In this document: positions 26,758-48,962 of the stretch, in pieces
Layout of the letters: each line of letters opens with the position of its first letter
Numbering within the stretch: the stretch's first letter is position 1
Source: an uncultured Solirubrobacterales bacterium
GTDB taxonomy: Bacteria > Actinomycetota > Thermoleophilia > Solirubrobacterales > Solirubrobacteraceae
DNA length: 64,000 bases
Assembly: GCA_963701195.1 (NCBI GenBank)
Contig: OY969574.1
Location: 1,884,446 to 1,948,445, forward strand
Direction: 5' to 3'
Notes under the pieces: generated by a model
The model's input: the letters and a program-made list of their open reading frames with translations, nothing else
Database searches by the model: none
Told to the model about the DNA's origin: nothing
Position numbers and translations under genes: made by a program

Positions 26758-27382
26758 CTACGCGAAAGCCCAGGGCAGCGCGTCTTCGACTTTGCCTAAG
26801 ACGCTCGCTTCTACTTTTGCTTCGGCTTCACCGATCTTCAATTCTCCTGGTGAAGAAATTAGCGCGATAAACGCTTCCGATAACCGCAGATCCTGACCCT
26901 GTGGCGCTAAAACGGTATACGTACCCGTTATCGCCTGCTTACCTTCTGCGGCGCATTTTCTTTCCGGCTTGAATTCAAATGTAGCAAAAATTTTACCTGT
27001 ATCAGGTTTGGCTATAGCTTTTGCTGCTAAGACGCCGTTCTAAGGTCACTAAGCCTTCGACGGGGAGCGAACGTATTGCAGAGCTAGTAAGTTCACATTC
27101 TGTTGGTGTCGATTTGCATTCTAAATCCACAAGGCTAGTAGCTAACAATTTATCTGGCTCGCTTACCACGCCGCCAACAATTTCCAACTTCGGACATCTA
27201 ATTGTCAACGTACTCCAGGATACTACACTTTCTTTGTCACTGACCGTCCGTGGCACAACCGCTGCCGATCCGGCAAGTAACGAGCCTGCCACTAACCAGC
27301 TCGCGCGCGCCGAACTTGCGACACCAACGCCGCACGCGAGCGCCGCAAGCAACGCCACGGCGAGCGCTTTCGCTCTAGACAT
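26758..27382 (-). CDS. Small secreted 4-Cys family protein (member 1) with a +1 frameshift at 27038-27039 (likely artefact)
   Basis: Signal peptide ...SARA|SWLVAGSLL; removing one base continues ...LDGVLAAKAIAKPDTGKIFATFEF...LPWAFA*; span is 208 codons plus 1 nt. Confidence 0.8.
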
Positions 27383-27563
27383 ACCGCTGGTCTCCTTTCG
27401 ACTTCACAAGCGCCCGTAGTCCGAACGCCGGCCGACCTGCCGCGCGTTCAGCGACGATCAAGCCACCCAACGTCTTACACCACCCGCAAGCTAATGTCAA
27501 CAGACAGGATTAATCAGCTATACGGCTCGCAGCGCAGCTAGAAGATAGCGAGTTCAACGGGCA

Positions 27564-27603
27564 GGGCCCTGCCCCACGCTCTACGCGGCGTGAGACAGGG
27601 CCC
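27564..27603 (-). terminator. Hairpin just downstream of the 293-aa gene
   Basis: GGGCCCTG...CAGGGCCC stem with an inner CACGC/GCGTG pair. Confidence 0.35.
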
Positions 27604-27611
27604 AAGATGCG

Positions 27612-28493
27612 TTAGTGCGAGTTGACCGATGCTACGGGAGACGTGTACAGCGTGTTTTCGAGGACCGCGACGTTCTTACCGGATTCTGCCGGCAGGCCCG
27701 CGACCAGCGAGCTGTTGATGATCGGGTCGACGAGCACCGACAGGGCGCCGCCGCAGCCGGTGGCTTCGGGAGCAGCCCACGTATTGTCGACCAGCTCGTT
27801 ACCGGTGATTTCGACCAGTTCCCCTTCTTCATGCAGCGAAGGAACGCCCGCTTTGCCTTCGATCGATTCGTAGGGCGCCGGCGGGCTGGTCGCGCCAGTC
27901 GTCAGGTTCCAGATAATCGGCGAGCTGTCCGAGCCCACGTAGCACGAGCTACCGAGAAACGGGTTTTCGAGGTGGATCTTGACCGGCAGCTTCAGCGCGG
28001 TCCCTTCCTTGACCAGCAGGTTGAAGCTGCTCAGTTCGATGTCGCTCGCGGGCTCGGCCAATTCGAGTGTCGCGTTAACGCCGGTGAGGCCGTTTTCAAG
28101 CACCAGCGCAAGCGCGATTTTTACGAGCAGCGGCGCTGATTCCGGCGGCACCAAACCGACCAGCCCACCGGGCACCGGCTGCGGCGTTTTCGAGAGCGTT
28201 TCGCCGTTGGTGGCGCCGTAGAAGCTCTCAAAGCCGGTTTCTTCGTTTTCCTTGGAGACCCCACCCTGCAGGATCACCGGGTTGACGATCGGCGTCGTCT
28301 TGTTGCCGAGCACGACCTTGCCGCTATTCGTCACCGAATAGAGGCATTTTCTGACGCCTTCCGTCGTCGACGGACACTCGTTGAACTTCGCAAACGCGCC
28401 TTCGTGCGCGAGCGCGGCGGCAGGCAGGCAGATCGCCGCCAAAGCCGCGACGACCGCACCCGTCAAGCCACGTACAACAGCTCGTAACAGCAC
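27612..28493 (-). CDS. Secreted 4-Cys protein of unknown function (~290-aa family, member A)
   Basis: Signal ...PAAALA|HEG; FNECP...RKCLYS, SSCYVGS, ATGCGG; paralog of 30838..31707. Confidence 0.8.
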   Translation of the reverse strand: MLLRAVVRGLTGAVVAALAAICLPAAALAHEGAFAKFNECPSTTEGVRKCLYSVTNSGKVVLGNKTTPIVNPVILQGGVSKENEETGFESFYGATNGETLSKTPQPVPGGLVGLVPPESAPLLVKIALALVLENGLTGVNATLELAEPASDIELSSFNLLVKEGTALKLPVKIHLENPFLGSSCYVGSDSSPIIWNLTTGATSPPAPYESIEGKAGVPSLHEEGELVEITGNELVDNTWAAPEATGCGGALSVLVDPIINSSLVAGLPAESGKNVAVLENTLYTSPVASVNSH

Positions 28494-28571
28494 AGCATTT
28501 CCTTTCTCGAGATTACAGTGCCAGGAACTCCATCCCTCAATCCGTCCTCAAGTCGTGCGGGGCCTTCACCG

Positions 28572-29237
28572 TCACCTGCGCGTGTAGTGGAAGAACAAAA
28601 AGCCCTCGAATTCCGCGGTGTGCACGGCTTCGTGCCGCAGCGCGGCGGCGTTGAAGCCCGGCTTGACGTGCAGGTGGCGCGGGAGCGCGAACAACACAGT
28701 CAAGTAGTCTTCGTGGTGGTGGGGCGGGCACAGCGAGTACGCGGTGTGCCCGGAGCTGTTTGTCCCGAGGATCGCGCCTGGCGGCAGCGTGCCCGCGGCC
28801 GTTCCGGTCGAGTTGGGGTCGATCCCGGCGACCGCCCAGTCGATATGGAGTTGGTTGTTGAGCGGCTTGAGGTTGATGACGTCGAGCATCAGTTCCACCG
28901 TGCCCGGCGGAATGCCGCGCCAGCTCAGCGGCGGGGAGATGTTCGCTCCGTCGCACGTGTAGCGCGCCGGCAGCGCTTCCGCCTGCAGCGCTGGGCTGGA
29001 GATTTTGACCTCGGCGACGGTCGGTACCGATGCGTGGGCGTGCTGGGAGGTATGCGTAGTTGCCGGCGATGTGGATGCCGGCTGCGTAGTGGTCTGCGTC
29101 TGCGCTGTCGTAGCCGCTGCCGAGGGCTGGCTGCTCGAGGCGGCGGTGCTCGAACCGCCACCGCATCCGGTGGCGAGGGCAGCGGCGAGCAGTGCGCAGA
29201 GACCGGCGAGCGCGTGGCGTTTGGCAGGGCTACCCAT
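28572..29237 (-). CDS. Lipoprotein with a degenerate YbhB/YbcL (PEBP-like) domain
   Basis: Lipobox LATG|C, Thr/Ser linker, LPARYTCDGANISPPLSW...YSLCPP. Confidence 0.75.
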   Translation of the reverse strand: MGSPAKRHALAGLCALLAAALATGCGGGSSTAASSSQPSAAATTAQTQTTTQPASTSPATTHTSQHAHASVPTVAEVKISSPALQAEALPARYTCDGANISPPLSWRGIPPGTVELMLDVINLKPLNNQLHIDWAVAGIDPNSTGTAAGTLPPGAILGTNSSGHTAYSLCPPHHHEDYLTVLFALPRHLHVKPGFNAAALRHEAVHTAEFEGFLFFHYTRR

Positions 29238-30069
29238 AGCTGCCTACCAGCAATCCCGTATGACGAGCGATCGCTTTGGCCTGCATACGCAGTGCAGCCG
29301 GTTCGAAACCGGATTGCGGCGAGAGGCTTTTCGGCAGCGCAAAGAGAATGAAGACGTACGTTTCGCGTCCGCCGGTGGGGCAGAGCGAGTACCGGGCCTG
29401 GCCCGAGCTGCCACGCCCGACGACCGCGCCAGATGGCACCTGGCCGGCCTGCATCCCGGTGAACGTCGGGCTGATCCGGGCCACCGCCCACGGGAACGCA
29501 AGTTTGCCGTCGACCGGTTGGGTCGCGATTACGAACAGCGCGAGTTCCTGCGTGCCATTGGGCACGCCCCGCCACTGCAACGGCGGCGATTCGTCCGCCC
29601 CGCGGCAGGTGTAGCGACTCGCGATCGTGCTCGCCGACGAACTCGCAGTGTGCGCGATCCCGGAACTCGCGAGATAGATATCGGTGACGGGCAGCACGGC
29701 GCGTTCGGCCGCCGAGATTTTGGGCTCGGGCGGCCCGTTCGGCGCCGGCAAAACGATGTGCGCGTGCCGGCGGCGCACCTTCGCGGTGTGGCCACCAGCG
29801 CCAGCCCCGCGGTTGGGGGTGACTGCCGCACTGGTCGTCGTGGGGGACCGGCTGGCGGTCGTCGCACGTGCGGCCGTCGTCGTGCTCGTCGCGGTCGCGG
29901 TCGCGCCGCCCGTATTCGAACTGGTCGGGCCGCTCGATTCGCCGCAGCCGGCGAGCGCAAGCGCGAACGCCGATAACAGCAGCGCAATCGCTGCTGGCTG
30001 CTGGCGTGCCGGGCGGCTGGAGCAAGGCCTGCCGCGCTTTGAATCTGAGTGCCGCGTGTGGTTGCGCAT
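29230..30069 (-). CDS. Lipoprotein with a degenerate YbhB/YbcL (PEBP-like) domain
   Basis: Lipobox LAG|C, Thr linker, IASRYTCRGADESPPLQW...YSLCPT; overlaps the next gene. Confidence 0.75.
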   Translation of the reverse strand: MRNHTRHSDSKRGRPCSSRPARQQPAAIALLLSAFALALAGCGESSGPTSSNTGGATATATSTTTAARATTASRSPTTTSAAVTPNRGAGAGGHTAKVRRRHAHIVLPAPNGPPEPKISAAERAVLPVTDIYLASSGIAHTASSSASTIASRYTCRGADESPPLQWRGVPNGTQELALFVIATQPVDGKLAFPWAVARISPTFTGMQAGQVPSGAVVGRGSSGQARYSLCPTGGRETYVFILFALPKSLSPQSGFEPAALRMQAKAIARHTGLLVGSYG

Positions 30070-30106
30070 CGCGATTCGTGATCTCCTCTCGCTATCCGGT
30101 ATTGCG

Positions 30107-30140
30107 ACGACGGGCCGGCAACGCTTTGCCGGCCCGTCGT
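30107..30140 (-). terminator. Intrinsic terminator-like hairpin after the 204-aa gene
   Basis: Perfect 15-bp stem ACGACGGGCCGGCAA / TTGCCGGCCCGTCGT with a 4-nt loop. Confidence 0.7.
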
Positions 30141-30175
30141 GCTGCTCTCTATGCTTCTGCTACTGGCTGTCCGTC

Positions 30176-30790
30176 CTACCCTTCGAGGTGTTCGTCGCGA
30201 TGTTTTTCGAATGCTTCAGTGGGAAAGACGCCGTTCCATTCGACCTGACCCGAGCCGACAAGCAGCGCGGTTTTCGTCTTTTCAAACGTTTCTTTGTCGA
30301 ATGTGGCGCGTTCTTCGCCGTTTTCGAGCACTCCGCCGGCCGAGCCGGAAACGCGGATACGTTCACCGGAAAGCGCGCAGAGTTCGCCCGAATAGGAGAT
30401 CCCCACGGCAACTTTTTCGACGACCAGATATTCCTTGCCTTCGACCGTCGTGATGTGGCCGGGCCACGGAAGTTTTTCCGCAGTGATGCTTTTCACCGAA
30501 CAGTTTTTGTTGTTGGTGGTGCATTCGTACAGCGGCAGTTCCGTGATTTCGGTCTTGCCATCGCCTTCTTTGTTCGAGATTTTCATGTTGTAGAGGAAAT
30601 GTTCGCACGTCGTCGTCGCGCCGGGAATCGTAAGGCTGCTGCTGAACGCCGCCCCGACAGCCGTTTCCGTGCCCGACAGTTCCGTGCCATTGAACTTCCA
30701 TACCGACGATGCGGTCGCCGTCGCAGCCGTCGCCGCGCACGCGAGCGCGGCGACGACGGTCAGGACCGCCAACCGTCCTGTAGTTCTCAT
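30176..30790 (-). CDS. Small secreted 4-Cys protein, divergent member of the ~200-aa family
   Basis: Signal ...ATATA|SSVWKFNG; Cys spacing (TTC, YEC, KNC, ELC) mirrors the family. Confidence 0.7.
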   Translation of the reverse strand: MRTTGRLAVLTVVAALACAATAATATASSVWKFNGTELSGTETAVGAAFSSSLTIPGATTTCEHFLYNMKISNKEGDGKTEITELPLYECTTNNKNCSVKSITAEKLPWPGHITTVEGKEYLVVEKVAVGISYSGELCALSGERIRVSGSAGGVLENGEERATFDKETFEKTKTALLVGSGQVEWNGVFPTEAFEKHRDEHLEG

Positions 30791-30837
30791 CTGAATATCA
30801 TCTCCTGGTAGAAAACGTTATGGAAATCGTGGCGGTC

Positions 30838-31707
30838 TTAGTGTGCGTTGACGGACCCGACAGTCGCAGTGAAGATCGTGTTCTTCAACTTTGCGACGTT
30901 CGTTTCCGCGGCGGCCGGCAGACCGACCTCGGCATCGACGATCGGGTCGACAAGGAACGAAATGATCCCGCCGCAACCCGTCGCTTCGGGGGCTTTCCAG
31001 TCGTTTTCCACGAGTTCATTTTCTTTGATTTCGATGAGTTCTCCTTCTTCCTTGAGTTCCGGAATGCCCGCTTTCCCTTCGATCGATTTAGCCGCAGGCG
31101 TCGGGCCGGTCGTCAGGTTCCAAATGATCGGCGAACTGCTCGAACCGATGTAGCACGACTTACCCAGGAACGGGTTTTCGAGATGCACCTTGACCGGCAT
31201 GGAAAGCGCGATGCCTTCCTTGATGGTGAGGTTGAACGTGCTCAATTTGATTTCGCTCGCCGGCTTTGCCAGTTCGAGTGTCGCGTTGAGTTCGAAGAGT
31301 TTATTGTGAATGAAGTATTCCTCGAGCAGTTTTACCAGGAACGGCTCGCCTGCTTCCGGCACGATCCCGAGCAGTCCACCTGGCACGGGCTGCGCTGCCT
31401 TCGACAGCGTTTCGTTGTTGCTGGCGGCCGTGAAAGGCTCGAAGCCCGTTTCTTCGTTTTCCGCGCCGACCCCGCCCTGCAGAATAACTTTGTTGACGAT
31501 CGGCGTCGTCTTTTTGCCGAGCACGATTTCGCCGCCGTTCGTGATCGAGTAGAGGCATTTCCTGACGCCCGTCGTTTTTGAGGGGCACTGGGCGAATTTC
31601 GTCCATACCGTTTCGGCCGACGCGGTCGCGGACAGACAAAGCGCGGCCAAAGCCGCCCCCAGCAGCGCCCGGAGGCAAAGCCTCAGAGTCCTTCTCTGCA
31701 TTCGCAT
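30838..31707 (-). CDS. Secreted 4-Cys protein of unknown function (~290-aa family, member B)
   Basis: Signal ...SATASA|ET; FAQCP...RKCLYS, KSCYIGS, ATGCGG. Confidence 0.8.
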   Translation of the reverse strand: MRMQRRTLRLCLRALLGAALAALCLSATASAETVWTKFAQCPSKTTGVRKCLYSITNGGEIVLGKKTTPIVNKVILQGGVGAENEETGFEPFTAASNNETLSKAAQPVPGGLLGIVPEAGEPFLVKLLEEYFIHNKLFELNATLELAKPASEIKLSTFNLTIKEGIALSMPVKVHLENPFLGKSCYIGSSSSPIIWNLTTGPTPAAKSIEGKAGIPELKEEGELIEIKENELVENDWKAPEATGCGGIISFLVDPIVDAEVGLPAAAETNVAKLKNTIFTATVGSVNAH

Positions 31708-32043: not shown

Positions 32044-35000
32044 TTATAGTGCTATGTTCTTGTGTCTGGCGGCGACTTGTTTGCCGACGGTGAGCGTGAG
32101 TGTGAGTGTGAGGTGGGTCTTGTGGTGTCGGTGCGCCGCGGTCCGTCTGCTCGCCGTGTACGCGAGGGTGTAGCTGTGCTTGCCCGGGCTCACTGCGCGT
32201 CGTACGAGCGTTTTCAGGCCGTTGCCCGCGATCCGCAGGCGGCCCTTCATCGTGGTCTTGACGGTGACGGTCAGCCCGTGCTTGCCGGCCTTCGCTTTGA
32301 CGAGCTTGACTTCGGGCTTGGCCGGCGGGCAGCCTTCGATCTTGAGTTTGACGTTTTCGTTGTGCGGGAGGCCGTTCTGGGCGGTCATGTCAACCGGGGC
32401 GACCATTTCCTGCCCGCACTGGCTGGCCTGGGCGCGTCCGACCGTGCGTGCGCTGGTGAACTGCGAGTACTGCTTGTGCGGGAGGCTCGCTTCAAACGTG
32501 CTGAACGGCGCGTCCGGGACCGACGGGAACGTGACCTTCAGCACGCTCTTGGAGGACACCGACGATTCGCCTTCGACTACGAGGGTAACGCCTTCACCCT
32601 GAAGCACCATCGCGACATTCGGAAATTTCGCGCTCCCATACGAGACGAGATAGATCGGGCCGCTCAGCGGATTGGAGAGGATCGGCGTGTGCACCGTCGC
32701 GGTGCCGATACTCGACGCAGCCGGACACGTAGCGGGGTTAGCTTCAAATGTTGCCGCCAGGCAGGCCTGGCGCAGCGTTTCCAGCCTGACCGGCAACTGC
32801 GTCGGGAACGAGATCGTGGTCTTGGCGATGTTGGACTGCGTCACCGACGGGTAGGCGATCTTGACGTTCACGCCCGTGCCTTCGGCTTTGCTCGCCTTCG
32901 CTTCGGTCGCGATCGTCGTCGTCGGCGTAAACGACAGCGCACGGCAGTCCTGTACCGCCAATGGGCTCGAAACGTTCTCGCGCGCACCTTCGGCAGAGCC
33001 GATCGTGCCAGTCGTCTGCAACGACTGGCAGCTCGTGGGGTTCAGCACGAATTCCTGGTTGCTGATCGAGAGCTGCGCGAAGCGGATTCGCAGCGGCACG
33101 CCGTCGAGTATCTGCGGGAAGTCGCTGCTCGTCGCGTCGACCTGCGCGGTGCGCGGGTTGACCGTCAGCGCGGCGCGCACCAGCACATAGCCGAGGTTGA
33201 ACGGTCCCGCAGTGGCGGGCACGACGATCGACAGGCCGAACGGCGCGCCTGCGTAGGGGCCGGTGAAGTAGACCTTGCCCGTCACGTAGTAGGGCTCGCT
33301 GCCCGACCCCACCGCGACAGTCGCTGTCCCGATCTGGCTCTTCGGGGGGCAGACTTCGGCAGCCTGCGAAGCGAGCGCAGCCGGGCACTGTTCCACCCGC
33401 GAAACGTACGCCAGCAGCCCGGGCGGCAGCGTCGTGGCGAGCGAGAGGATGCTCTGTTCGCGATCGCGCCGTTCCATCGTGAGCACGAACGGGCTGGTGG
33501 CGCCCGCCGCGTGGCTCGTCGTATCGGCCGTGAACGACGGCGCGAACGGCGGCGTCACAGGGCACGGTTCGCCCGCTCCGTTCCAGTCGACGTTGAAGTA
33601 GTCCGACGGGAACGCTTCGCCGGTGTACGGCGAGGCCCACGAGCTGATCTGGCCTTCGCTGACCGCATTCCCGCACGTCTGCGGGTTGGCGAGCGGCGCG
33701 CGCGCGCCGCCGGCCGTGGAGACCGTCAGGCTCGAGAGCGGGAACTGCGGGTTTTCTTCGAAGATCGTCGTGATCCGGCCGGTTTCCGGGTCGACCGACG
33801 CGTGCCCGGCGAGCTTGATCACGACACCCGATTCCGGCGCCTGCAGTTCGAGGTAGACCCTGAACAGCCTGCCCTCAGCCGCGTACTTCGGGCTGCATTC
33901 TTCCTGACCCAGGCCGCCGCATTCGGGCTCAGCGACAAATAGATGCCCTTCCAGCTGATCGTGAAGCAGTGGCGTGCTCGCCCTAACCGTCGCGATCTGC
34001 GACGCTTCCGGGCAGTGCCCCGCGGCAAGCCGCTTGAGGCCGTCGGCGCCCATTTCTTCGGATTCTTCGCCTTCGATATTGATCCCTTGCGGTCCGGATT
34101 CCTGGCAGGCCTCGAGCCCGTTCGCGCCCGAAGGCGAGATCGTCGTGCCCGCGGGCAGCGCGACCGTGACATTCTTGACCGGCGGGGTACCCAAGCCCGT
34201 CCCGCCGTTGGGCGCCTGCGGGACCTTCAGGCCCACTTCGTAACCCGACGGCGCAGCCGCTTGCGTCGTCTGCGGCTTGACACTGAGCGTCGAAGTGAAG
34301 CTCAACAGGTTGCAGCCTTCGAGCTTGGAGAACGCGAGAGCGGAGCCTTTGAGCATCACGCCCGGTTCCTTCCAAGTGTCAAATTCCACCTGGGCTTCCC
34401 TCGCGGACTGATCCGCTTCGCAGTCGCTCGGATCCGTCACGAACGCGCCGCGGTCAAACGTGGATTCTTCCTGGTTTTCGCGGATGTAGCGTTCTTCGAT
34501 ATCTCCGTAGAACGTCGCGATCGCACCGACAAACGACGCAATGCCGGCTATGTCTGGAACGGCGACACGCACGACATAGTGCCCATCGCGTCTCACCACG
34601 GTCGCGTACATGAAGAACGTAAGATTGTTGAATGCAAACGCGAACTCCGCTGCATAGCCCTTCTCCGGGGTAACGCTGTAAATCCCGCGTACGTGCGTCG
34701 GATCGACACTGTGCGCGAACACGTGGTTCAAGATCATCGGCAAAATCGATCCCGCTCGGCTCGACTGCGGACAGCCACTCAACGCGTTCTTTGCTTCCAC
34801 AAGCGACGCCGGGCACTGATTCAGAACAGTCGGGTTACCGAGGAACCCCAGCGGCAGATAGAATTCGAGATTCTTCATCGGCTCCACCGGTTTAAATTCT
34901 TCGATATTGCTCACATTTTCATCACGCATATCATTTGCGGTAAACGTCGTGACGGTAAGATTTGGATGCCCAGCCGCCTGTCGAAACGGTTCACCAGTCG

Positions 35001-35574
35001 GCCCTGTCTCCTGAAACCCAAATTGCTCTACTCCCGAAGGAGCAGTTTCGTGTTCACCCCCAACACGCGTGACCGCTTCATCGCCGGCGCTTTTAGCTCC
35101 ACCACCACTCACGCTCGCGACATCGCGCAGCAGACCTTCAATGTGGCTTTCGACTTCATATTCCACGGTCACGACCATGAACCCGGTCGGGACCGTAGGT
35201 TCAAGGTAATGGCATTCAACTTCAGTGCCACTCAACAAGGAACATTCCGATGCTTCTTCAGGTTCCGCCCTGGTAGCAGTAACCTTCAACCCGGCCGGCA
35301 GCACATCTTTCACCGTCACTTCGCCACCACTCGCCAACCCACCGATGTTCTCCACAATCACATAATATCGACCCTTACGATTCACGCCCTGCGGCTGAAC
35401 AGTGGGAAACGCCACAACCGTCGCCTGCCACGCCGGCGCCGCCGCACCAGTCACAGCAACAGCCCGCACCGCACCAAACCACAGACCACAAACACACAGC
35501 GCTACCCACACACCGGCAAAACGCGACCCACGACCTGCGGTCAACGATCGGCACCCGAAAACGCGAACCATCAC
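32044..35574 (-). CDS. Large (1176-aa) secreted modular protein, copy A
   Basis: N-terminal signal, four C..CPxxSx(I/A)(G/A) modules, basic C-terminal tail; start overlaps the upstream stop (TGATG). Confidence 0.85.
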   Translation of the reverse strand: MMVRVFGCRSLTAGRGSRFAGVWVALCVCGLWFGAVRAVAVTGAAAPAWQATVVAFPTVQPQGVNRKGRYYVIVENIGGLASGGEVTVKDVLPAGLKVTATRAEPEEASECSLLSGTEVECHYLEPTVPTGFMVVTVEYEVESHIEGLLRDVASVSGGGAKSAGDEAVTRVGGEHETAPSGVEQFGFQETGPTGEPFRQAAGHPNLTVTTFTANDMRDENVSNIEEFKPVEPMKNLEFYLPLGFLGNPTVLNQCPASLVEAKNALSGCPQSSRAGSILPMILNHVFAHSVDPTHVRGIYSVTPEKGYAAEFAFAFNNLTFFMYATVVRRDGHYVVRVAVPDIAGIASFVGAIATFYGDIEERYIRENQEESTFDRGAFVTDPSDCEADQSAREAQVEFDTWKEPGVMLKGSALAFSKLEGCNLLSFTSTLSVKPQTTQAAAPSGYEVGLKVPQAPNGGTGLGTPPVKNVTVALPAGTTISPSGANGLEACQESGPQGINIEGEESEEMGADGLKRLAAGHCPEASQIATVRASTPLLHDQLEGHLFVAEPECGGLGQEECSPKYAAEGRLFRVYLELQAPESGVVIKLAGHASVDPETGRITTIFEENPQFPLSSLTVSTAGGARAPLANPQTCGNAVSEGQISSWASPYTGEAFPSDYFNVDWNGAGEPCPVTPPFAPSFTADTTSHAAGATSPFVLTMERRDREQSILSLATTLPPGLLAYVSRVEQCPAALASQAAEVCPPKSQIGTATVAVGSGSEPYYVTGKVYFTGPYAGAPFGLSIVVPATAGPFNLGYVLVRAALTVNPRTAQVDATSSDFPQILDGVPLRIRFAQLSISNQEFVLNPTSCQSLQTTGTIGSAEGARENVSSPLAVQDCRALSFTPTTTIATEAKASKAEGTGVNVKIAYPSVTQSNIAKTTISFPTQLPVRLETLRQACLAATFEANPATCPAASSIGTATVHTPILSNPLSGPIYLVSYGSAKFPNVAMVLQGEGVTLVVEGESSVSSKSVLKVTFPSVPDAPFSTFEASLPHKQYSQFTSARTVGRAQASQCGQEMVAPVDMTAQNGLPHNENVKLKIEGCPPAKPEVKLVKAKAGKHGLTVTVKTTMKGRLRIAGNGLKTLVRRAVSPGKHSYTLAYTASRRTAAHRHHKTHLTLTLTLTVGKQVAARHKNIAL

Positions 35575-36185
35575 ACACCCCTCCGACCCAGCCGCTTACC
35601 CTGCACCCTCAACGCACGACCCCGTCGCTTCCTATGGACCTTACTGCTCTTCTTACGGGTCTTTTTGCTCTTTGACGGCTTGCCAGGCTTTTTGGTCACG
35701 CTCGCAGGCCGCGTACCAGAACCCCGTCGCCGACGGAAAGTCGCCTTCAGCGGCGCTCGCTGCCACGCCAGTCCCGCCACCCACCGGCACGGCACCTTCA
35801 CAAGTGCTCGGTACGCATACAGCGGACTCGCCCTGTACAGGCCCAGGCGGAAACCCACCACCAACACGCGCATCATAAATATCACGCTGAAACCCATCGA
35901 CGTCACTAGTCAACAACGGATCCGCCGTCGATACCAGAACATTCGAACCATCTTCATCCATCCCATAAACGAAAGCACCACACGTAGACCCTTTATTCAA
36001 CTGCACATCACGACCATCCGACAACAAATACACTTTACCCGCAGAAATTGGGCCTTCACTACGAAACTCATACACACTTTTACACCCAAGTGACGACGCA
36101 GACCGAGCACGTGGACTCAATTCACCCGCCGTCTGAAACACCACCGTCCTACCATCAGACGACACATCCAACCGATTTTCAGAGG
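32073..36185. repeat. Direct repeat block 1, copy A (about 4.1 kb), near-identical to 40403..44514
   Basis: Translated ORFs are identical in several frames at offset 8330; the only difference I saw is the extra A at 35720-35721. Confidence 0.9.
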
Positions 36186-37893
36186 TTTTGTAGTCGAATG
36201 CGTGACCGACGAGAACATTCTCTAGCGACGCTCGCGGAATTCCTTCCGTTACACTATTGCCGTTATCGTTGAACCCTTCTTCGCCTTGCGTTACCCTCAC
36301 CAGTTCCCTTGTTTCCGTGTCGTACTCGAATAGTTGAGTGAGTCCTTCGCGTGTATCATCGGGCGTAACACCTTCTGCGGAGCTGACAAACAGTAGAAAC
36401 TGACCATTTTCCCCGGCGGCCTGGACGGGGCGGATGAACTGTCGTTCCCAGTCTTCTTCGTCCGCATTGCTCAGCGTCGCGATGAACGATGCTGCTTTAC
36501 TTTCGGTGTCATACACATACAAGTTTGGCTCACCCACAATCGGTCTATGGTGGAACTCGTTTTCACCCCCTCCAGGAACTTCGTCCTCAGCCACGAAATA
36601 GATATGCGAGCCGTCCTCTGCAATACCAGCAACACCACGCACGTTACTAGCGCCACCTGCGACAAGCGCCAACCGACTGTGCGCCGGCAGCGCAAAGTTA
36701 TACTCATAAAGATTGCACCCTTTACTACTACTCGCGCAGCCATGTCCTTCGGCTGCGTTCCCACCGGTAGTCAGATCGGCCGCGCCTTCCGTCAACTTCT
36801 GCGTGCTCGTGAAGAATACCTTCTCTCCGTTTTCCGAAGCGCCCTCAAAATTCTTCCCCGATTCCACTTCGCATTCGGCCCCACTACATTCGCGTTCGGA
36901 GATATCAATTGTTTCCGCCGGCATAGGCGTAGTCATCGCACCATGCAGACGCGCATAAACTTCCGTAGTGCTCGGCGCAGAACCGCAGGGATCAACCGTA
37001 AAGAAGATACTTTCACCATCACGAGATATCGCATTATATACCGCACCTTCACCACCAAAGTGCACGCCGCAATCTGCGACCAGTTCATGCCTCCCTTTTG
37101 CGCCCTTTTCCCCCACCAACACCGGCGCTTCATTATTTACCCCACTATATTCATACAACGACTTATCTACAGTCGTTTTATCAAACGGCCAAATAGCCTG
37201 GGGTTGTTCCGCCGCCAGCACGACATGCTGATAGTCGCTGGTAGCCCCAACTGGTTCGTCAAACGGGACAGTAGCCGCTTCTATCACGTCTTCACCTGCT
37301 TCGCTGCTGAGAGCATCTGGCGTCACCGACCCTACCCGAGCGTACGTACCCCCAGCCGAGCGAACATACAGTTCCGCCGTTTTAGCCGACTGGTGCGAAG
37401 TATGCTGTACCCACAACGACAGTCCGTTCTCCGCTTCAAAAGCATACCCAAGCTCCCCCACGAACTCACTCAACGGAGCATTCATCGCCGACAACCGCCA
37501 ACCACCCACGGTTCGTTCATCTATATACAAGTTGGGTTTCAAGCCGCCTTCACCCGTCCCGGGCGTACCGGCAAGCCCCCCCACGCTGTCCAGGATCGCT
37601 TTTTCACCATTCGCGGCGAAGCTTTGGACAAACATGGGATACCCGTCCTTATATGGCGGCGTCACCATCTCATATGCACGGCAATCGGGAAGCAGGCTGG
37701 ATCCGAGCGACGATCGCAACGTTTCATTCTCACACACAGTACCGTCGGCGCTCCCGCAGACACCCGCCGCGAAAACCAGCACGACCAGCACCGCGACCAC
37801 CAGCCGTTCACTGCGCCGGCTCTGCAGAGCAGCCACGGGGCTACCTGTCCGGGTCACGTGTCCACCCACTTCCCTATCGGCCATGCACTCCAT
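35571..37893 (-). CDS. Secreted beta-propeller (TolB/WD40-like) protein, copy A, with a +1 frameshift at 35720-35721 (likely artefact)
   Basis: CRAYEMVTPP; repeated (I/A/V/M)SxDGxx(I/V)FF blades; DIYDARVGGGFP; the duplicate at 44049 lacks the extra A. Confidence 0.8.
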
Positions 37894-37942
37894 TACCTCT
37901 CCCTCGACTCTTAAATCCACTATAGGTGCTACTTGCGATAGT

Positions 37943-37982
37943 GGGTGGGACACCGTTGCATGACGCGCACGGTGACCCACCC
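37943..37982 (-). terminator. Conserved hairpin between the small secreted gene and the beta-propeller gene (copy A)
   Basis: GGGTGGGACACCG...CGGTGACCCACCC; the same stem with a different loop occurs at 46269..46309. Confidence 0.55.
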
Positions 37983-38004: not shown

Positions 38005-38631
38005 TTACGTGAAACTCCACGGCATGTCGCTTGTCAGATGGAATAAAGCACTACCTTCAATTTTCGCTTCGGCTTCCCCGACTTTGAGTTCTCCAGGTGT
38101 CGTTATCAAGGCGCTTATTAACTGCCATAAACGTTCGTCCTGACCCGTGGGCGCTAAGATCGTCGCAGTACCTGTGACCGCTTGCTTACCTTCTGCGGCG
38201 CATTTTTTTTCTGGCTTGAATTCAAACGTAGCAAAGATTTTCCCACTAGTATCGGGTTTAACAGTGGCTACTGCCGCTAAGGCGCCCTCTAATGTCACTA
38301 ACCCTTCAATGGGAAGAGTATGTACTTCAGGTTTAGTAAGTTCGCATTCAGCTGGCGTAGCTCTACATTCTAAGAATAAAAGACTAGTTGCTAAGAACTT
38401 GTCAGGCTCGCTGATTACCCCGCCATCAACTTCGAGTTTCGGGCACTTAATCGTCAAAGTACTCCAACTAAGTACACCTTCTTTGTCGGTGATAGTCGAA
38501 GGTGAAACTGCCGTCGACCCTACAAGTAACGAACCTAACACTAACCATCCCGCCTGTGCCGAACCCGCAGCGATCGCGCTGAGCGCAAACGCCGCAAAGG
38601 ACGCTAGAACGAGTATTCGTACCTTGGACAT
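38005..38631 (-). CDS. Small secreted 4-Cys family protein (member 2)
   Basis: Signal ...GSAQA|GWLVLGSLL; C-terminal DMPWSFT; AGGAGATC RBS; 13 TTA codons. Confidence 0.85.
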   Translation of the reverse strand: MSKVRILVLASFAAFALSAIAAGSAQAGWLVLGSLLVGSTAVSPSTITDKEGVLSWSTLTIKCPKLEVDGGVISEPDKFLATSLLFLECRATPAECELTKPEVHTLPIEGLVTLEGALAAVATVKPDTSGKIFATFEFKPEKKCAAEGKQAVTGTATILAPTGQDERLWQLISALITTPGELKVGEAEAKIEGSALFHLTSDMPWSFT

Positions 38632-38790: not shown

Positions 38791-39731
38791 TCCATGCGCC
38801 GGTCTTGAGCTGTTCGTAGTCTTATCCGATGGCAGACGGACTGTCAATGGCTACTCGTGGACAGGTAGTCTTCGACAGCGACCGAACACTCGAAAGCCCT
38901 TGGTATCGGGCCATACGGGCCGCCCCGGCCGTGGCGGACAAGTAAGAAACACCCGTACAGCGAGCGTCACCGCGCGGGTGTTTCTATGTCGGACCGCGCC
39001 CTGTCGGCCGACGACCTCAACCCGTGCCTGCCGGCCCTTGCCTGACGAGACCACTGCCGGCTGACCGCCGGGCACCCAGATGGCCACCGCTGGTCGGCTA
39101 GCACGGTGGCCCATCTCCATAGCTACAGAACTTTAAATCGGCGTTGGCTCACACCGCGTTGACAAGCCCGACCATGATGCATCGTCCTACTGGAAACTCC
39201 AAGGCATATCGTTCGCGAGGTGAGATAACGCGCTTCCTTCTATTTTCGCTTCGGCTTCGCCGACTTTGAGTTCACCGGGTGTTGTTACCAAAGCGTTGTC
39301 TAACTGCCATAAGCTTTCACGGCCTACACCTAACAGCGTGGCTGTACCCGTGATCGCCTGCTCGCCTTCTACGGCGCATTTTTTTCCTGGTTCGAATTCA
39401 AACGTAGCGAAAATTTTCCCGCCGGTATCGGGTTTGACGGTCGCTATGCCCGCTAAGGCGCCCTCTAAAGTCACTAAACCTTCAACGGGGACCGTATGTA
39501 TTTCAGGTTTAGTAAGTGCGCATTCAGCTGGCGTAGATTTACATTCTAAGAATAAAAGACTAGTCGCTAAAAACTTGTCAGGCTCACTGATCACCCCACC
39601 ATCCACTTCAAGCTTCGGGCATTTAACCGTCAAACTACTCCAACTAAACACAGCTTCTTTATCGGTGATAGTCGAAGGCGAAGCCGCCGTCGACCCTACA
39701 AGTAATGACCCTAACACTAGCCAACCAGCCT
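38791..39731. repeat. Direct repeat block 2, copy A, near-identical to 47140..48079
   Basis: About 400 bp of non-coding DNA plus the mature-domain coding sequence; only a few differences, all in the non-coding part. Confidence 0.88.
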
Positions 39732-39807
39732 GCGCCGAACCCGCAACAATCGCGCTGACCGCGACTACTGCAAAGAACACCGAGGCAAGCACTGCTGGCC
39801 TCGACAT
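39187..39807 (-). CDS. Small secreted 4-Cys family protein (member 3)
   Basis: Start MSRPAVL at ATG 39807; ...GSAQA|GWLVLG; ends DMPWSFQ; 12 TTA codons. Confidence 0.85.
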   Translation of the reverse strand: MSRPAVLASVFFAVVAVSAIVAGSAQAGWLVLGSLLVGSTAASPSTITDKEAVFSWSSLTVKCPKLEVDGGVISEPDKFLATSLLFLECKSTPAECALTKPEIHTVPVEGLVTLEGALAGIATVKPDTGGKIFATFEFEPGKKCAVEGEQAITGTATLLGVGRESLWQLDNALVTTPGELKVGEAEAKIEGSALSHLANDMPWSFQ

Positions 39808-39899: not shown

Positions 39900-39992
39900 G
39901 AATATTCGTGATATCAGAACATGGCTCGGGACCACGACTCTCAACGCACGACGGCATGCCGCCGTCCAAATCTAGCCCCAGCTGGGCTCGAC

Positions 39993-40283: not shown

Positions 40284-40373
40284 GCAGCGAAGGGTACTCA
40301 CGTACGAAACGGTGCGAAGACCGCCCGCGCGCGCGCCGGCTGAGCGGCGTCCGCAGAGCGCGCAGAGCGCGCG

Positions 40374-46219: not shown

Positions 46220-46268
46220 TCCTCTCCCTCAACTCTCCAGTCCGCTCATTGTGTTACCTGCAATAATA

Positions 46269-46309
46269 GGTGGGACACCGACGTCACACAGCCCGTACGG
46301 TGGCCCACC
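46269..46309 (-). terminator. Conserved hairpin, copy B
   Basis: GGTGGGACACCG...CGGTGGCCCACC. Confidence 0.55.
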
Positions 46310-46345
46310 CTCACCTATCTATCTACTGCGTCGCTGCAAATGCTT

Positions 46346-46972
46346 TTACGTAAAGCTCCACGGCATGTCGCTTGACAGGTGGAATAAAGCGCTACCTTCT
46401 ATTTTCGCTTCGGCTTCACCGACTTTGAGTTCGCCAGGTGTCGCTATCAAGGCGTTGATTAACTGCCATAAACGTTCGTCCTGGCCTGTGGGTGCTAAGA
46501 TCGTCGCAGAACCCGTAACCGCCTGCTTACCTTCTGCAGCACATTTTTTTTCTGGTTCGAATTCAAACGTAGCAAAAATTTTCCCGCCGCTATCTGGTTT
46601 GACGGTCGCTACTGCCGCTAAAACGCCGTCTAATGTCACTAAACCTTCAATAGGCAACGTATGAATCGAGCTACTGGTAAGTATGCATTCTTTTGGAGTG
46701 GATTTGCATTCTAAGAATAAGAGACTGGTCGCTAAGAACTTGTCAGGCTCGCTGATCACCCCACCGTCCACTTCAAGCTTCGGGCATTTAACCGTCAAAG
46801 TACTCCAACTAAGTACACCTTCTTTGTCGGTGATAGTCGAAGGTGAAACTGCCGTCGACCCTACAAGTAACGAACCTAACACTAACCATCCCGCCTGTGC
46901 CGAACCCGCAGCGATCGCGCTGAGCGCAAACGCCGCAAAGGACGCTAGAACGAGTATTCGTACCTTGGACAT
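46346..46972 (-). CDS. Small secreted 4-Cys family protein (member 4)
   Basis: Start MSKVRIL at ATG 46972; N-terminus identical to member 2; 13 TTA codons. Confidence 0.85.
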   Translation of the reverse strand: MSKVRILVLASFAAFALSAIAAGSAQAGWLVLGSLLVGSTAVSPSTITDKEGVLSWSTLTVKCPKLEVDGGVISEPDKFLATSLLFLECKSTPKECILTSSSIHTLPIEGLVTLDGVLAAVATVKPDSGGKIFATFEFEPEKKCAAEGKQAVTGSATILAPTGQDERLWQLINALIATPGELKVGEAEAKIEGSALFHLSSDMPWSFT

Positions 46973-47139
46973 AACTGATGTGATCTCCTCTCGCTTATTG
47001 TAATACCGATGCGCCCTTGCAAACGAGGGCACCGGCCGTCGGCCCGGCACACTTCCCTGCTGGGCTCACCGGACCTTCGACGCGATCTTCGTGCTGTTAT
47101 GTCCTCTACCTCTCTCTCTGAGCCCACACCGTCATGCAG

Positions 47140-48079
47140 TCCATGCGCCGGTCTTGAGCTGTTCGTAGTCTTATCCGATGGCAGACGGACTGTCAATGGC
47201 TACTCGTGGACAGGTAGTCTTCGACAGCGACCGAACACTCGAAAGCCCTTGGTATCGGGCCGTACGGGTCGCCCCGGCCGTGGCGGACAAGTAAGAAACA
47301 CCCGTACAGCGAGCGTCACCGCGCGGGTGTTTCTATGTCGGACCGCGCCCTGTGGCCAACGACCTCAACCCGTGCCTGCCGGCCCTTGCCTGACGAGACC
47401 ACTGCCGGCTGACCGCCGGGCACCCAGATGGCCACCGCTGGTCGGCTAGCACGGTGGCCCATCTCCATAGCTACAGAACTTTAAATCGGCGTTGGCTCAC
47501 ACCGCGTTGACAAGCCCGACCATGATGCATCGTCCTACTGGAAACTCCAAGGCATATCGTTCGCGAGGTGAGATAACGCGCTTCCTTCTATTTTCGCTTC
47601 GGCTTCGCCGACTTTGAGTTCACCGGGTGTTGTTACCAAAGCGTTGTCTAACTGCCATAAGCTTTCACGGCCTACACCTAACAGCGTGGCTGTACCCGTG
47701 ATCGCCTGCTCGCCTTCTACGGCGCATTTTTTTCCTGGTTCGAATTCAAACGTAGCGAAAATTTTCCCGCCGGTATCGGGTTTGACGGTCGCTATGCCCG
47801 CTAAGGCGCCCTCTAAAGTCACTAAACCTTCAACGGGGACCGTATGTATTTCAGGTTTAGTAAGTGCGCATTCAGCTGGCGTAGATTTACATTCTAAGAA
47901 TAAAAGACTAGTCGCTAAAAACTTGTCAGGCTCACTGATCACCCCACCATCCACTTCAAGCTTCGGGCATTTAACCGTCAAACTACTCCAACTAAACACA
48001 GCTTCTTTATCGGTGATAGTCGAAGGCGAAGCCGCCGTCGACCCTACAAGTAATGACCCTAACACTAGCCAACCAGCCT
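47140..48079. repeat. Direct repeat block 2, copy B
   Basis: Matches 38791..39731. Confidence 0.88.
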
Positions 48080-48155
48080 CAGCCGAACCCGCAACAATTG
48101 CGTTAAACGCAAATGCCGCGAAAAATGCCAATAGCAATGTTCTTGTCCTATGCAT
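47535..48155 (-). CDS. Small secreted 4-Cys family protein (member 5)
   Basis: Start MHRTRTLL at ATG 48155; mature part identical to member 3, signal peptide different. Confidence 0.85.
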   Translation of the reverse strand: MHRTRTLLLAFFAAFAFNAIVAGSAEAGWLVLGSLLVGSTAASPSTITDKEAVFSWSSLTVKCPKLEVDGGVISEPDKFLATSLLFLECKSTPAECALTKPEIHTVPVEGLVTLEGALAGIATVKPDTGGKIFATFEFEPGKKCAVEGEQAITGTATLLGVGRESLWQLDNALVTTPGELKVGEAEAKIEGSALSHLANDMPWSFQ

Positions 48156-48263
48156 ATCGCTGATCTCCTTTTGCCTCAGCCGCATACTACCGACGTGCCC
48201 CCTGAGCTGCGCCGAAAAGCACGCACGTCCTATCTGGCGTACACGACATAAATGAAGCGGACA

Positions 48264-48298
48264 GGCAAACCGCCACCGCTTCAGCATGGCGGTTTGCC
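48264..48298 (-). terminator. Terminator-like hairpin after member 6
   Basis: 12-bp perfect stem GGCAAACCGCCA / TGGCGGTTTGCC. Confidence 0.6.
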
Positions 48299-48332
48299 CA
48301 TTCTTATCTCTATACTGCTGAAACTAAAATAC

Positions 48333-48962
48333 TCAGTCGAAGCTCCACGGCATGTCGCTCACGAGGCTTACTAACGCACTTCCTTCTATCGTAGCCGCAG
48401 CTTCACCTACTTTCAGTTCGCCAGCTGTCGTTATAAGCGCGTTGATTAATTGCAATAACCGTTCGTCTTGGCCGGTCGGCGCTAATATCGTCGCGGTACC
48501 GGTAATCGCCTGCTTGCCTTCCTCGGCACAGCCTTTTTCTTCTTCAAAGAAGAACGTGGCAAAGATAGTTTTGCCGGTATCTGGTTTGACTATCGCTTTT
48601 ACCGCTAACGCCCCATCTAAGGTTACTAAGCCTTCGATCGGGAGCGTACTGATCCGGCCATTTTGAAGCACACACTCCGCTGGCAATGATGTACATTCTG
48701 CGAATTCTAGACCGCCAGATAAGAACTTATCGGGCTCTTTGATAGTAGTATTCTCACTGAGCTGCAACTTCTTGCATGTTATTTTAGAAGTGGACCAACT
48801 TAGCGAAAAAGGCTTGTCGACGACAGTTTTCATATTTACTTGTTCTGATTCGAAAACTAATGAGCCTAATACTAACCATCCGGCTTGAGCCGAGCCCGCA
48901 GCGATCGCGCTAAAGGCGAACGCCACGAAGAACGACAAGGCGAGCACTCTTGCCCTGTCCAT
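48333..48962 (-). CDS. Small secreted 4-Cys family protein (member 6, more diverged)
   Basis: ...GSAQA|GWLVLGSLV; ends DMPWSFD; 11 TTA codons. Confidence 0.85.
   Translation of the reverse strand: MDRARVLALSFFVAFAFSAIAAGSAQAGWLVLGSLVFESEQVNMKTVVDKPFSLSWSTSKITCKKLQLSENTTIKEPDKFLSGGLEFAECTSLPAECVLQNGRISTLPIEGLVTLDGALAVKAIVKPDTGKTIFATFFFEEEKGCAEEGKQAITGTATILAPTGQDERLLQLINALITTAGELKVGEAAATIEGSALVSLVSDMPWSFD

Follow-up and report, generated by a model that had tools for sequence, protein, structure and literature searches.

The analyzed stretch of 64,000 nucleotides (the window) from the genome of a soil actinobacterium (Solirubrobacterales) carries six small secreted paralogs rich in the leucine codon TTA, a divergent relative, and larger secreted operon partners. 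The genes are listed below by window position.

22797-25209: kamD and kamE, which precede the second LysRS copy
25223..26746 (+): second copy of LysRS, altered in its side-chain pocket and convergent with family member 1
26758..27382 (-): family member 1, 10 TTA; frame broken by one extra base near 27037
27612..28493 (-): secreted partner of ~290 aa, 0-1 TTA, GAA 85%
30176..30790 (-): divergent secreted relative, 204 aa, 0 TTA, GAA:GAG 23:0
30838-31707: paralog of the ~290-aa secreted partner
32044..35574 (-): secreted operon partner of 1176 aa, copy 1; 0 TTA, GAA 84% despite GC3 of 0.75
35653..37980 (-): secreted operon partner of ~775-790 aa, copy 1; 0-1 TTA, TTG-rich, GAA-rich
38005..38631 (-): family member 2, 208 aa with signal peptide, 13 TTA among 26 leucines, GC3 0.44
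39187..39807 (-): family member 3, 206 aa from the ATG at 39807, 12 TTA
40374-43904: secreted operon partner of 1176 aa, copy 2
43901-46219: secreted operon partner of ~775-790 aa, copy 2
46346..46972 (-): family member 4, 208 aa, 13 TTA
47535..48155 (-): family member 5, 206 aa, 12 TTA
48333..48962 (-): family member 6, 209 aa, 11 TTA; 66% identity to member 2
49128..50156 (-): KamB (lysine 5,6-aminomutase reactivase), on the same strand as the family and immediately upstream

In the initial annotation, 10, 13, 12, 13, 12, and 11 TTA codons had been counted by hand in members 1 to 6, and our recount returned exactly these numbers. About half of the leucines in the six genes are written TTA, and the five intact paralogs are the top five TTA-bearing open reading frames of the whole 4.19-Mb, 69% GC genome. 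As had been noted, none of the six signal peptides contains TTA, and the divergent member at 30176-30790 has none at all. The codons cluster at residues 30-35, 80-87, 111-118, 159-171, and 196 of the family proteins; in a structure model, which was all-beta (pLDDT 68), we saw no clear relation between TTA sites and strands. The one-base frameshift of member 1, near window position 27037, marks it either as a pseudogene or as the product of an assembly error. Member 4 is 91% identical to member 2, and the mature part of member 3 is identical to that of member 5; as both pairs are recent duplicates, the six genes do not represent six independent observations. The same pattern recurs in a seventh paralog (49% identity) that lies 1.4 Mb away, in the 11 copies that another Solirubrobacterales MAG carries, and in metagenome contigs. 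The arrangement of KamB with the family recurs in metagenome locus L072, and the neighborhood of kamD, kamE, and the second LysRS copy is conserved in locus L077. Any link between this LysRS copy and the TTA family is putative.

TTA is the rarest codon of the genome. It accounts for 0.6% of leucine codons genome-wide (668/116,235 in a crude gene set) and for 0.17% in conserved alignments and is nearly absent from housekeeping genes, in line with the scarcity reported initially. Thus, the possibility that TTA is simply common across the genome was checked and did not hold. One exception among the housekeeping genes is a DnaE2-like gene with four TTA, three of which lie at conserved motifs, where a Pol III alpha of solved structure has Leu, Leu, and Val. 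In conserved genes, TTA aligns with CTC or CTG leucine in a congener, and outside the family its position is not kept, with only 1 of 19 sites being TTA in the congener as well.

The initial annotation had placed the TTA codons at homologous leucine positions. This was borne out when the codons of 33 family members, drawn from six or more Solirubrobacterales sources, were aligned: about ten leucine columns are TTA in essentially every member that bears leucine there. About 13 other leucine columns never contain TTA, while CTN and TTG exchange freely in them, and a permutation test for column-specific leucine codon use gave z = 60. On a tree of the same 33 sequences, synonymous changes numbered 9 in the 297 cells of the TTA columns (six of the nine in a single column), as compared to 103 in 291 cells of the other leucine columns and 511 in 1564 at four-fold sites, which are saturated. 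This corresponds to 0.030 changes per cell in TTA columns versus 0.33-0.35 elsewhere. Because A and G exchange freely at four-fold sites, mutation bias is excluded. The two classes of columns also differed when the amino acid changed: TTA columns turned mostly to E, T, S, D, N, or K, and the other leucine columns to V, F, I, or M. TTA was also absent from the 158 leucine codons of 17 hydrophobic columns in which leucine is found occasionally. Only 1 of about 12 TTA columns aligned with leucine in the TTA-free subfamily B, and the leucine content of the TTA family equals that of subfamily B only when TTA is counted as leucine. Purifying selection on the codon itself at the TTA sites is strongly supported.

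The constraint is not confined to leucine. GAA/GAG and AAA/AAG are fixed column by column in the family as strongly as TTA, and some columns are fixed for the G-ending codon (two for GAG and three for AAG). Pyrimidine-ending two-fold codons and the A/T-ending codons of four-fold boxes showed no conservation; GCA, GTA, ACA, and CCA were not locked by position in the family alignment, and Gln CAA/CAG was free. Thus, the earlier statement that neighboring synonymous sites had diverged freely is correct for four-fold and pyrimidine-ending sites but fails for Glu and Lys codons. By the same token, the proposed comparison with other A/T-ending codons gave a split answer: four-fold-box and pyrimidine-ending two-fold codons are not conserved like TTA, while GAA and AAA are. 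The constraint is thus broader than a TTA signal: it concerns A- versus G-ending codons of split boxes, with TTA as the most extreme example.

This wider constraint extends to the operon partners and, more weakly, to ordinary genes of the lineage. The share of GAA is 69-96% in the operon, even at GC3 of 0.75-0.83, versus 12% in housekeeping genes. Column-wise locking in the ~790-aa and 1176-aa partners reached z = 15 and 14.6 for Glu and z = 7.3 and 9.0 for Lys. In pooled housekeeping genes, the excess positional conservation was 0.52 for Glu and 0.79 for Lys, as compared to 0.02-0.26 for Q, D, N, F, H, Y, and C, in a test that covers few genes and close relatives only. Between two congeners, the most position-conserved minor codons were AAA and GAA.

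Two tRNAs with a UAA anticodon coexist in the genome. The check for a tRNA-Leu(UAA) gene, suggested initially, returned a canonical copy, and the second tRNA lies next to a synthetase-like gene.

G000:2796017-2796104: canonical class II, long-arm tRNA-Leu(UAA), 88 nt
G000:2073270-2073342: second tRNA(UAA), class I, short-armed, 73 nt
G000:2073270-2075101: short tRNA(UAA) with the divergent arginyl-tRNA-synthetase-like (ArgRS-like) gene right behind it, outside the window

With 65-66 bits against the Rfam tRNA model and covariation in three of the five pairs of its anticodon stem, the short tRNA is genuine. It lies upstream of the ArgRS-like gene in all four fetched loci and in 61 of 64 metagenome loci. 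Of 77 copies, 75 carry the anticodon UAA and two, both from short loci, carry UGU on an otherwise identical body. The ArgRS-like protein scores 84 bits against an ArgRS cut-off of 262, and a Pfam search with it found no domain besides a short piece of the catalytic core. The genes flanking the pair resemble an amino-acid-modifying pathway. In this genome, the putative TTA-rich targets lie ~140 kb from the pair. A member of the family is found together with the pair on one 139-kb contig. The pair has >2,120 homologs versus 67 proteins of the TTA family. What sense-codon reassignment would call for, a dedicated tRNA with the matching anticodon and a dedicated synthetase-like partner, is therefore present.

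The initial annotation had proposed selection either for gated or slowed translation or for a DNA-level TTA(G) motif. Selection at the codon level is upheld by the fixed columns next to saturated silent sites, and gated or slowed translation is the most likely mechanism that we infer from it. We estimate a probability of about 0.5 that TTA is read as leucine by the ordinary tRNA-Leu(UAA) and that selection acts on which tRNA decodes each site. In such a scheme, the family and its operon partners would form a class of genes that use A-ending split-box codons (TTA, GAA, and AAA) which are rare elsewhere, and rare U34 tRNAs would limit and pace the synthesis of the small secreted beta-rich proteins and their partners. 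With 10-13 fixed TTA in 208 codons, output should depend very steeply on the supply of charged or modified tRNA-Leu(UAA). Such a scheme would extend the bldA gating of Streptomyces to many sites per gene, and pauses at particular positions in aid of folding or export may come on top. The kinetic and regulatory steps are our reading of two observations, the purifying selection on codons and the presence of the tRNA. Since the locking is shared by GAA/GAG and AAA/AAG, by the partners, and by housekeeping genes, it points to one tRNA-level cause rather than to a recoding specific to TTA. Several results sit uneasily with gating, however. Gating alone needs no fixed positions, and if more TTA were better, gains of TTA from TTG would be expected, yet there is no TTA in ~290 cells of the other leucine columns. 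The polar replacements in TTA columns, the absence of TTA from the leucines of the 17 hydrophobic columns, and the near lack of leucine at these columns in subfamily B also speak against it. Furthermore, U34 tRNAs of four-fold boxes should be rare as well; because the A-ending codons of these boxes and Gln CAA/CAG are unlocked, the kinetic argument leaves an effect restricted to Leu, Glu, and Lys unexplained.

Another reading is a lineage-wide constraint, under which A- and G-ending codons of Leu(TTR), Glu, and Lys are not equivalent at each site, possibly through isoacceptor-specific modification, charging, or accuracy, and the family is an extreme case written in A-ending codons. The column-wise fixation of GAG and AAG alongside GAA and AAA, the z scores of the partners, the Glu and Lys excess in housekeeping genes, and the top rank of AAA and GAA between congeners all agree with it. 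We nevertheless consider it doubtful, as it has no known mechanism, TTA outside the family was kept at only 1 of 19 sites, and the housekeeping tests come from few genes of close relatives. We judge it unlikely, and less likely than gating or pacing, which is probably what the selection on TTA serves, that the class I tRNA(UAA) reads the family TTA at least partly and is charged by the ArgRS-like enzyme with a non-leucine, possibly non-standard, amino acid supplied by the neighboring genes. TTA would then not be synonymous with CTN or TTG, and so the codons would never interchange. The bimodal leucine columns with their polar replacement spectra fit this idea, as does a swap between two family tiers at positions 109 and 111, where (E, TTA) in one corresponds to (TTA, E) in the other. 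So do the genuine short tRNA and its placement, the low ArgRS score of its partner, the pathway-like flanking genes, and the contig that joins pair and family member. The switch between UAA and UGU on one body is the pattern of dedicated mistranslation pairs such as tRNAProX/ProRSx (PMC10404621), and a natural allo-tRNA(UAA) puts Ser at UUA in Escherichia coli (PMC5389517). Against it, the canonical tRNA-Leu(UAA) coexists, the TTA codons of the DnaE2-like gene align with Leu, Leu, and Val and those of other conserved genes with leucine, and the pair is far more widespread than the family. Column L30 mixes TTA with CTA, CTC, CTG, TTG, and Met, column L35 mixes it with Met, and L114 and L159 align with Val in subfamily B. 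Glu and Lys codons are locked equally, and no comparable orphan pair was found for them. ArgRS-type enzymes need tRNA to activate their amino acid, and so the short tRNA could instead be a cofactor or carrier of a biosynthetic pathway. In its full form, with an orthogonal pair of Solirubrobacterales (the 73-nt tRNA(UAA), the remodeled ArgRS-like enzyme, and a tailoring pathway) writing a non-leucine, possibly non-standard, residue at TTA, the secreted family as its client, and UGU marking lineages moved to ACA, the proposal would amount to a sense-codon counterpart of the pyrrolysine system and is equally tentative.

A signal in the DNA or RNA, with TTA(G) or another short motif serving protein binding, recombination, nuclease action, or structure, is very improbable. 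G follows TTA in 60% of cases versus 43% after other leucine codons, and an antisense frame is open across most members. However, codons flanking TTA vary freely at silent sites, no extended nucleotide motif is common to the sites, and such a signal would also freeze four-fold sites, which are free; the initial proposal of a TTA(G) motif is thus not supported. The antisense frame is open because Tyr is absent and His and Gln are scarce, and it pairs third base with third base, so A versus G is silent there. Even slighter are the chances that no selection is involved and that the codons reflect shared AT-rich ancestry or a recent transfer from a low-GC donor preferring TTA. The region at 26.7-49 kb does have 50-63% GC in a 69% GC genome, and GC3 of the small secreted genes is 0.44-0.52. 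Yet four-fold identity of distant members is at the random level (9/37), a paralog with GC3 of 0.69 retains nine TTA in the same columns, operon partners of similar GC3 have 0-1 TTA, and the leucine columns are bimodal rather than uniformly TTA-rich. Simple AT-rich ancestry is ruled out by the genome-wide rarity of TTA and the saturation of the other silent sites. Because the locus and its gene order are kept in relatives, it is not a recent insertion.

If TTA is leucine here, we know of no stronger natural case of purifying selection acting on codons at many fixed positions within a single protein. Control of the bldA type by rare codons would then have its first indication outside the Streptomyces group, extending over a whole operon class written in TTA, GAA, and AAA. 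Such a class would be a clean system for testing if the synthesis of secreted proteins is gated, paced, or insulated by rare codons. If instead the orphan tRNA and its synthetase-like partner read TTA, a sense codon would have been reassigned or expanded naturally and its clients would form a defined family, a case that bears on the evolution of the genetic code and on the engineering of orthogonal pairs. Whichever reading holds, these genomes are misdescribed by gene callers and codon models in which the sites count as silent.

The pyrrolysine cassette pylT-pylS-pylBCD unites a tRNA, its dedicated synthetase, and amino-acid-modifying genes in one cluster. The locus of the short tRNA resembles it in the clustering of a tRNA with synthetase-like and modifying-type genes and in a nearly unused codon at fixed sites of few genes. 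In contrast to pyrrolysine, the codon is a sense codon and not a stop, a canonical tRNA for it coexists, and the putative targets lie ~140 kb away. Ser is placed at UUA by a natural allo-tRNA(UAA) (Mukai et al., PMC5389517), likewise a UAA-anticodon tRNA of non-leucine type, which works on the ribosome as the short tRNA is predicted to do. Allo-tRNAs have 8/4 or 9/3 acceptor/T branches and Ser identity, whereas the short tRNA has a normal 7/5 cloverleaf of 73 nt and its own synthetase-like partner. A further parallel is the dedicated mistranslation pair tRNAProX/ProRSx of Streptomyces and Kitasatospora (PMC10404621). There, too, anticodon and body of an actinobacterial tRNA do not match, a divergent isoform of a synthetase is encoded alongside, and the anticodon differs between lineages (here UAA, rarely UGU). 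Here, the putative synthetase is ArgRS-like, and ProX has no reported target gene family.

Position-specific conservation of synonymous rare codons beyond codon bias was described by Chaney et al. 2017 (PMC5438181), who proposed control of local elongation rate as its cause. The TTA family shares the retention of rare codons at aligned sites beyond the synonymous background. The effect is far stronger here, with ~1% leakage over ten columns while four-fold sites are saturated, and it concerns three amino acids only, with some columns fixed for the common G-ending codon.

To our knowledge, no bldA-type system has been described in Solirubrobacterales. The precedent for gating is the Streptomyces bldA regulon, which consists of tRNA-Leu(UAA) and TTA-containing genes (PMC4255298). 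Shared with it are the high-GC actinobacterial background with TTA as the rarest codon, the dedicated tRNA-Leu(UAA), and the concentration of TTA in non-housekeeping genes, where it is kept at orthologous positions. Unlike bldA targets, the genes encode structural secreted proteins and not regulators or late genes, and TTA is fixed over paralogs down to ~43% identity with locked GAA and AAA alongside. With 10-13 fixed TTA sites per gene in place of one or few, the system goes well beyond the bldA precedent.

The enrichment of TTA leucine codons in the small secreted paralogs was confirmed, and it turned out to be far stronger and broader than reading of the sequence alone had shown. The host genome (G000) is one contig (C1) of 4.19 Mb with 69% GC, probably assembled from long reads; the window corresponds to G000:C1:1884446-1948445. 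Across about 26.7-49 kb of the window, the GC content drops to 50-63%, every gene lies on the minus strand, and the products carry signal peptides. The stretch and its flanks contain the following features:

window 22797-26746, plus strand: kamD-kamE-lysRS2, flanking the stretch and convergent with the small genes
window 26758-48962, minus strand: six paralogs of about 208 amino acids, the small secreted family
within 26.7-49 kb, minus strand: a divergent 204-amino acid relative of the small proteins, with 0 TTA
within 26.7-49 kb, minus strand: two secreted proteins of about 290 amino acids
within 26.7-49 kb, minus strand: two PEBP-family proteins with signal peptides
within 26.7-49 kb, minus strand: a tandemly duplicated block encoding the 1176-amino acid protein, the protein of about 775 amino acids, and small proteins
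window 49128-50156, minus strand: kamB, on the other flank, upstream of the small genes

The tandem duplication spans about 8.3 kb (window 32044-40373 versus 40374-48700; 1176-aa, 775-aa, and small genes). In the small family, members 3 and 5 are identical in their mature parts and differ in their signal peptides and upstream regions. A single extra base near 27037 disrupts the frame of member 1 (window 26758-27382); this could reflect a pseudogene or, presuming a long-read assembly, an assembly error. Pieces of a further broken copy lie at G000:C1:123421-124909 (about 52% identity to member 2 across residues 1-83 and 149-208), and in a relative, an IS21-family element (transposase and IstB; L077 10762-12710) is inserted amid the small genes. 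A Pfam search of the small, 290-aa, 775-aa, and 1176-aa proteins returned no family. The AlphaFold model of the small protein is all-beta with a pLDDT of 68, the N-terminal segment including GWLVLGSLLVGS being unmodelled, and its comparison with the PDB gave no significant match (best E = 0.067, generic beta-barrels). With a match and a model of that quality, we rejected assigning a function by fold.

Recounting reproduced the TTA numbers of the initial annotation for members 1 to 6 (10, 13, 12, 13, 12, and 11), as well as the lack of TTA in their signal peptides and in the divergent member at 30176. The codon is indeed rare in this genome: it supplies 0.6% of leucine codons across a crude gene set and 0.17% across conserved alignments, and the five intact paralogs are the top five TTA-rich ORFs genome-wide. 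Their operon partners, with similarly low GC3 (0.54-0.56), contain 0-1 TTA and use TTG. Elsewhere, a DnaE2-like error-prone polymerase gene (G000:C1:3282227-3286099, GC3 0.92) carries 4 TTA and may be a true bldA-style target.

Because members 2 and 4 as well as 3 and 5 are recent duplicates, we enlarged the sample; the relatives retrieved by name were uncultured Solirubrobacterales and Solirubrobacteraceae. A peptide-pattern scan of JGI metagenomes found no family loci; these were obtained by protein database search instead. The sample included a seventh paralog at a distance of 1.4 Mb (49% identity, GC3 0.69, 9 TTA), 11 copies from another Solirubrobacterales MAG (8-11 TTA each), and further members from contigs of JGI metagenomes, each with 6-12 TTA. 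In the resulting 33-sequence codon alignment, numbered after member 2, leucine columns are bimodal in their use of TTA. Columns L36, L84, L98, L106, L182, L199, and others contain 0 TTA among 26-32 leucine codons each and mix CTN with TTG; the TTA columns are given below.

TTA share of leucine codons by alignment column
L30: 21/28
L32: 19/19
L35: 28/29
L80: 21/21
L111: 19/19
L114: 33/33
L118: 30/30
L159: 33/33
L168: 22/22
L171: 29/30
L196: 32/33

On a maximum-likelihood tree, the fewest synonymous changes required per cell set the TTA columns apart from the other classes of silent sites listed below.

Synonymous changes per cell (minimum)
TTA columns: 0.030
remaining leucine columns: 0.354
four-fold sites: 0.327
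two-fold sites ending in a pyrimidine: 0.212
glutamine: 0.19
A<->G at four-fold sites: 0.188

The TTA codons are thus kept in place by selection; neither time nor composition nor mutation bias accounts for them. We rejected both neutral ancestry and mutation bias: simple descent from an AT-rich ancestor is countered by the saturation of four-fold and pyrimidine two-fold sites and by the paralog that retains TTA at a GC3 of 0.69, and a mutational bias against A<->G by the rate of this change at four-fold sites, which is similar to that of C<->T. A TTA(G) motif acting at the DNA level, as had also been proposed, found no support in the flanking sequence, nor did any other flanking motif, and this reading was rejected as well. 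Antisense frames are open across entire small genes despite 50% GC (window 38147-38776, 39266-39877, and 47614-48255, plus strand), and one such frame was annotated as a gene by JGI (L076 7412-8101). This openness arises because the sense proteins lack Tyr and are poor in His and Gln. An overlapping antisense gene was rejected by reasoning: since the third positions are common to both frames, A versus G is silent in the antisense frame.

TTA is not the only codon under such constraint. Glutamate and lysine show 0.021 and 0.090 synonymous changes per cell in the family, with each column settled on its own codon: two glutamate columns keep GAG (19/0 and 13/0) and all remaining ones GAA; among the lysine columns, three keep AAG and others AAA. 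Orthologs of the 1176-aa and the 790-aa partners behave likewise (z = 15 and 14.6 for Glu, 7.3 and 9.0 for Lys), with D, N, F, H, Y, Q, and four-fold sites near random. Equal conservation of other A/T-ending codons, which the initial annotation had named as evidence against its proposal, thus holds for GAA and AAA and fails for A/T-ending codons in general. In the operon class, GAA makes up 69-96% of glutamate codons, even at GC3 0.75-0.83, versus 12% in housekeeping genes. Secreted or giant GAA-rich proteins comprise the partners at window 27612-46219 and those at G000:1321821-1330337, 1176404-1185907, and 3764866-3769104; among orthologs of this class, GAA/GAG and AAA/AAG are fixed per column. 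A TTA-free second subfamily of small secreted proteins, subfamily B, has at least 13 paralogs elsewhere in the genome, in which TTG accounts for 43% of leucine codons and GAA for 96% of glutamate codons (GAA:GAG 16:1). Its members, for example those at G000:C1:610570-611178, 778102-778707, and 3588602-3589204, are about 33% identical to the family and nearly identical to each other. Avoidance of Shine-Dalgarno-like GAGG/AAGG was rejected as the cause of GAA/AAA locking because its genome-wide effect is weak (23% versus 15% GAA).

The flanking LysRS is a second copy, the other (G000:3367419-3369002) being canonical. We compared motifs that we take to line the lysine side-chain pocket, and in these the window copy departs from its counterpart as well as from LysRS enzymes of solved structure (EFTMxEWYEAYADY is replaced by EFTILEWMMSYADY, and ANAFSE by LSGDTE). 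The Arg/Phe/Gln triad of the OB anticodon-binding fold, which presumably reads U35, appears from the sequence to be retained, making LysRS2/KamDE an unlikely TTA-decoding system. The kamD-kamE-lysRS2 cluster is also convergent with small genes on a 200-kb metagenome contig (L077 16311-20213), and KamB lies directly upstream of small genes on another. Nothing in the analysis indicated that LysRS2 reads TTA, and any connection between it and the locked AAA/AAG columns would be purely speculative.

Besides a canonical 88-nt tRNA-Leu(UAA), the genome encodes a second tRNA with a UAA anticodon, a 73-nt class I species (G000:2073270-2073342; Rfam score 65-66 bits). It lies 44 nt upstream of a gene with native GC3 (0.93) for a 571-aa, very divergent ArgRS-like protein, which contains an HVGH motif, reaches 84 bits where the argS cut-off is 262 bits, and in its core is 35% identical to the genome's other ArgRS-like match (2214389-2215282), presumably the canonical ArgRS. 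Homologs of the protein number more than 2,120, of which the best 120 are 67-82% identical. In four of four fetched loci, the short tRNA precedes the ArgRS-like gene, in a conserved context of Lys/Orn N-monooxygenase, P450, tRNA, ArgRS-like, GATase/chorismate-binding fusion (PabAB-like), GNAT acetyltransferase, and deacetylase. Scanning metagenomes with the acceptor, D, and T arms as anchors yielded 77 copies, with the anticodon UAA in 75 and UGU in 2, covariation in three of the five anticodon-stem pairs, and an ArgRS-like ORF within about 30 nt after the tRNA in 61 of the 64 loci for which sufficient sequence was available. The pair, at G000:C1:2073270-2075101 in this genome, is widespread in Solirubrobacteraceae (loci L080, L082, L083, and L084-L160).

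The behavior of the locked columns bears on special decoding of TTA by this pair. On amino acid change, TTA columns turn to E, T, S, D, N, K, Q, G, or A, and occasionally to M, whereas other leucine columns turn to V, F, I, and M. Among 17 hydrophobic columns with occasional leucine, TTA occurs in 0 of 158 leucine codons, while in polar variable columns 19 of the 20 sporadic leucines are encoded by TTA; in alignment to subfamily B, leucine stands opposite about 1 of 12 TTA columns versus 5 of 9 other leucine columns. On the other hand, at L30 TTA interchanges with CTA, CTC, CTG, TTG, and Met; L35 mixes it with Met; and L114 and L159 face Val in subfamily B. The total leucine content equals that of subfamily B only when TTA is counted as leucine. 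Retention of a third-base A whatever the amino acid was rejected, as non-TTA codons in TTA columns end in A and in G equally (36% each). Global reassignment is countered by the DnaE2-like polymerase, with three TTA codons opposite Leu, Leu, and Val in the Pol III alpha of Thermus aquaticus, and by genuine conserved genes with TTA opposite CTC/CTG leucine in a congener (a small sample). Decoding by the pair appears quite improbable; the features of the pair are equally compatible with the short tRNA serving as a cofactor or carrier in a biosynthetic pathway.

We favor selection on isoacceptor choice with TTA read as leucine, at a probability of about 0.5. The operon class draws on rare A-ending split-box codons, and its translation would thereby be tied to rare tRNAs. 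This reading does not yet account for the strictness with which positions keep to one codon, or for the confinement of the effect to Leu, Glu, and Lys. Locking of Glu and Lys is also present, albeit weaker, in housekeeping genes of the lineage, and a lineage-wide constraint of unspecified cause is a further, unlikely explanation. Selection on isoacceptor choice would extend bldA-type control to many sites per gene, perhaps combined with pacing at particular sites. The tRNA and its ArgRS-like partner, in turn, resemble pairs of Streptomyces dedicated to mistranslation (PMC10404621), and the short tRNA resembles the allo-tRNA(UAA), which decodes UUA as Ser (PMC5389517).
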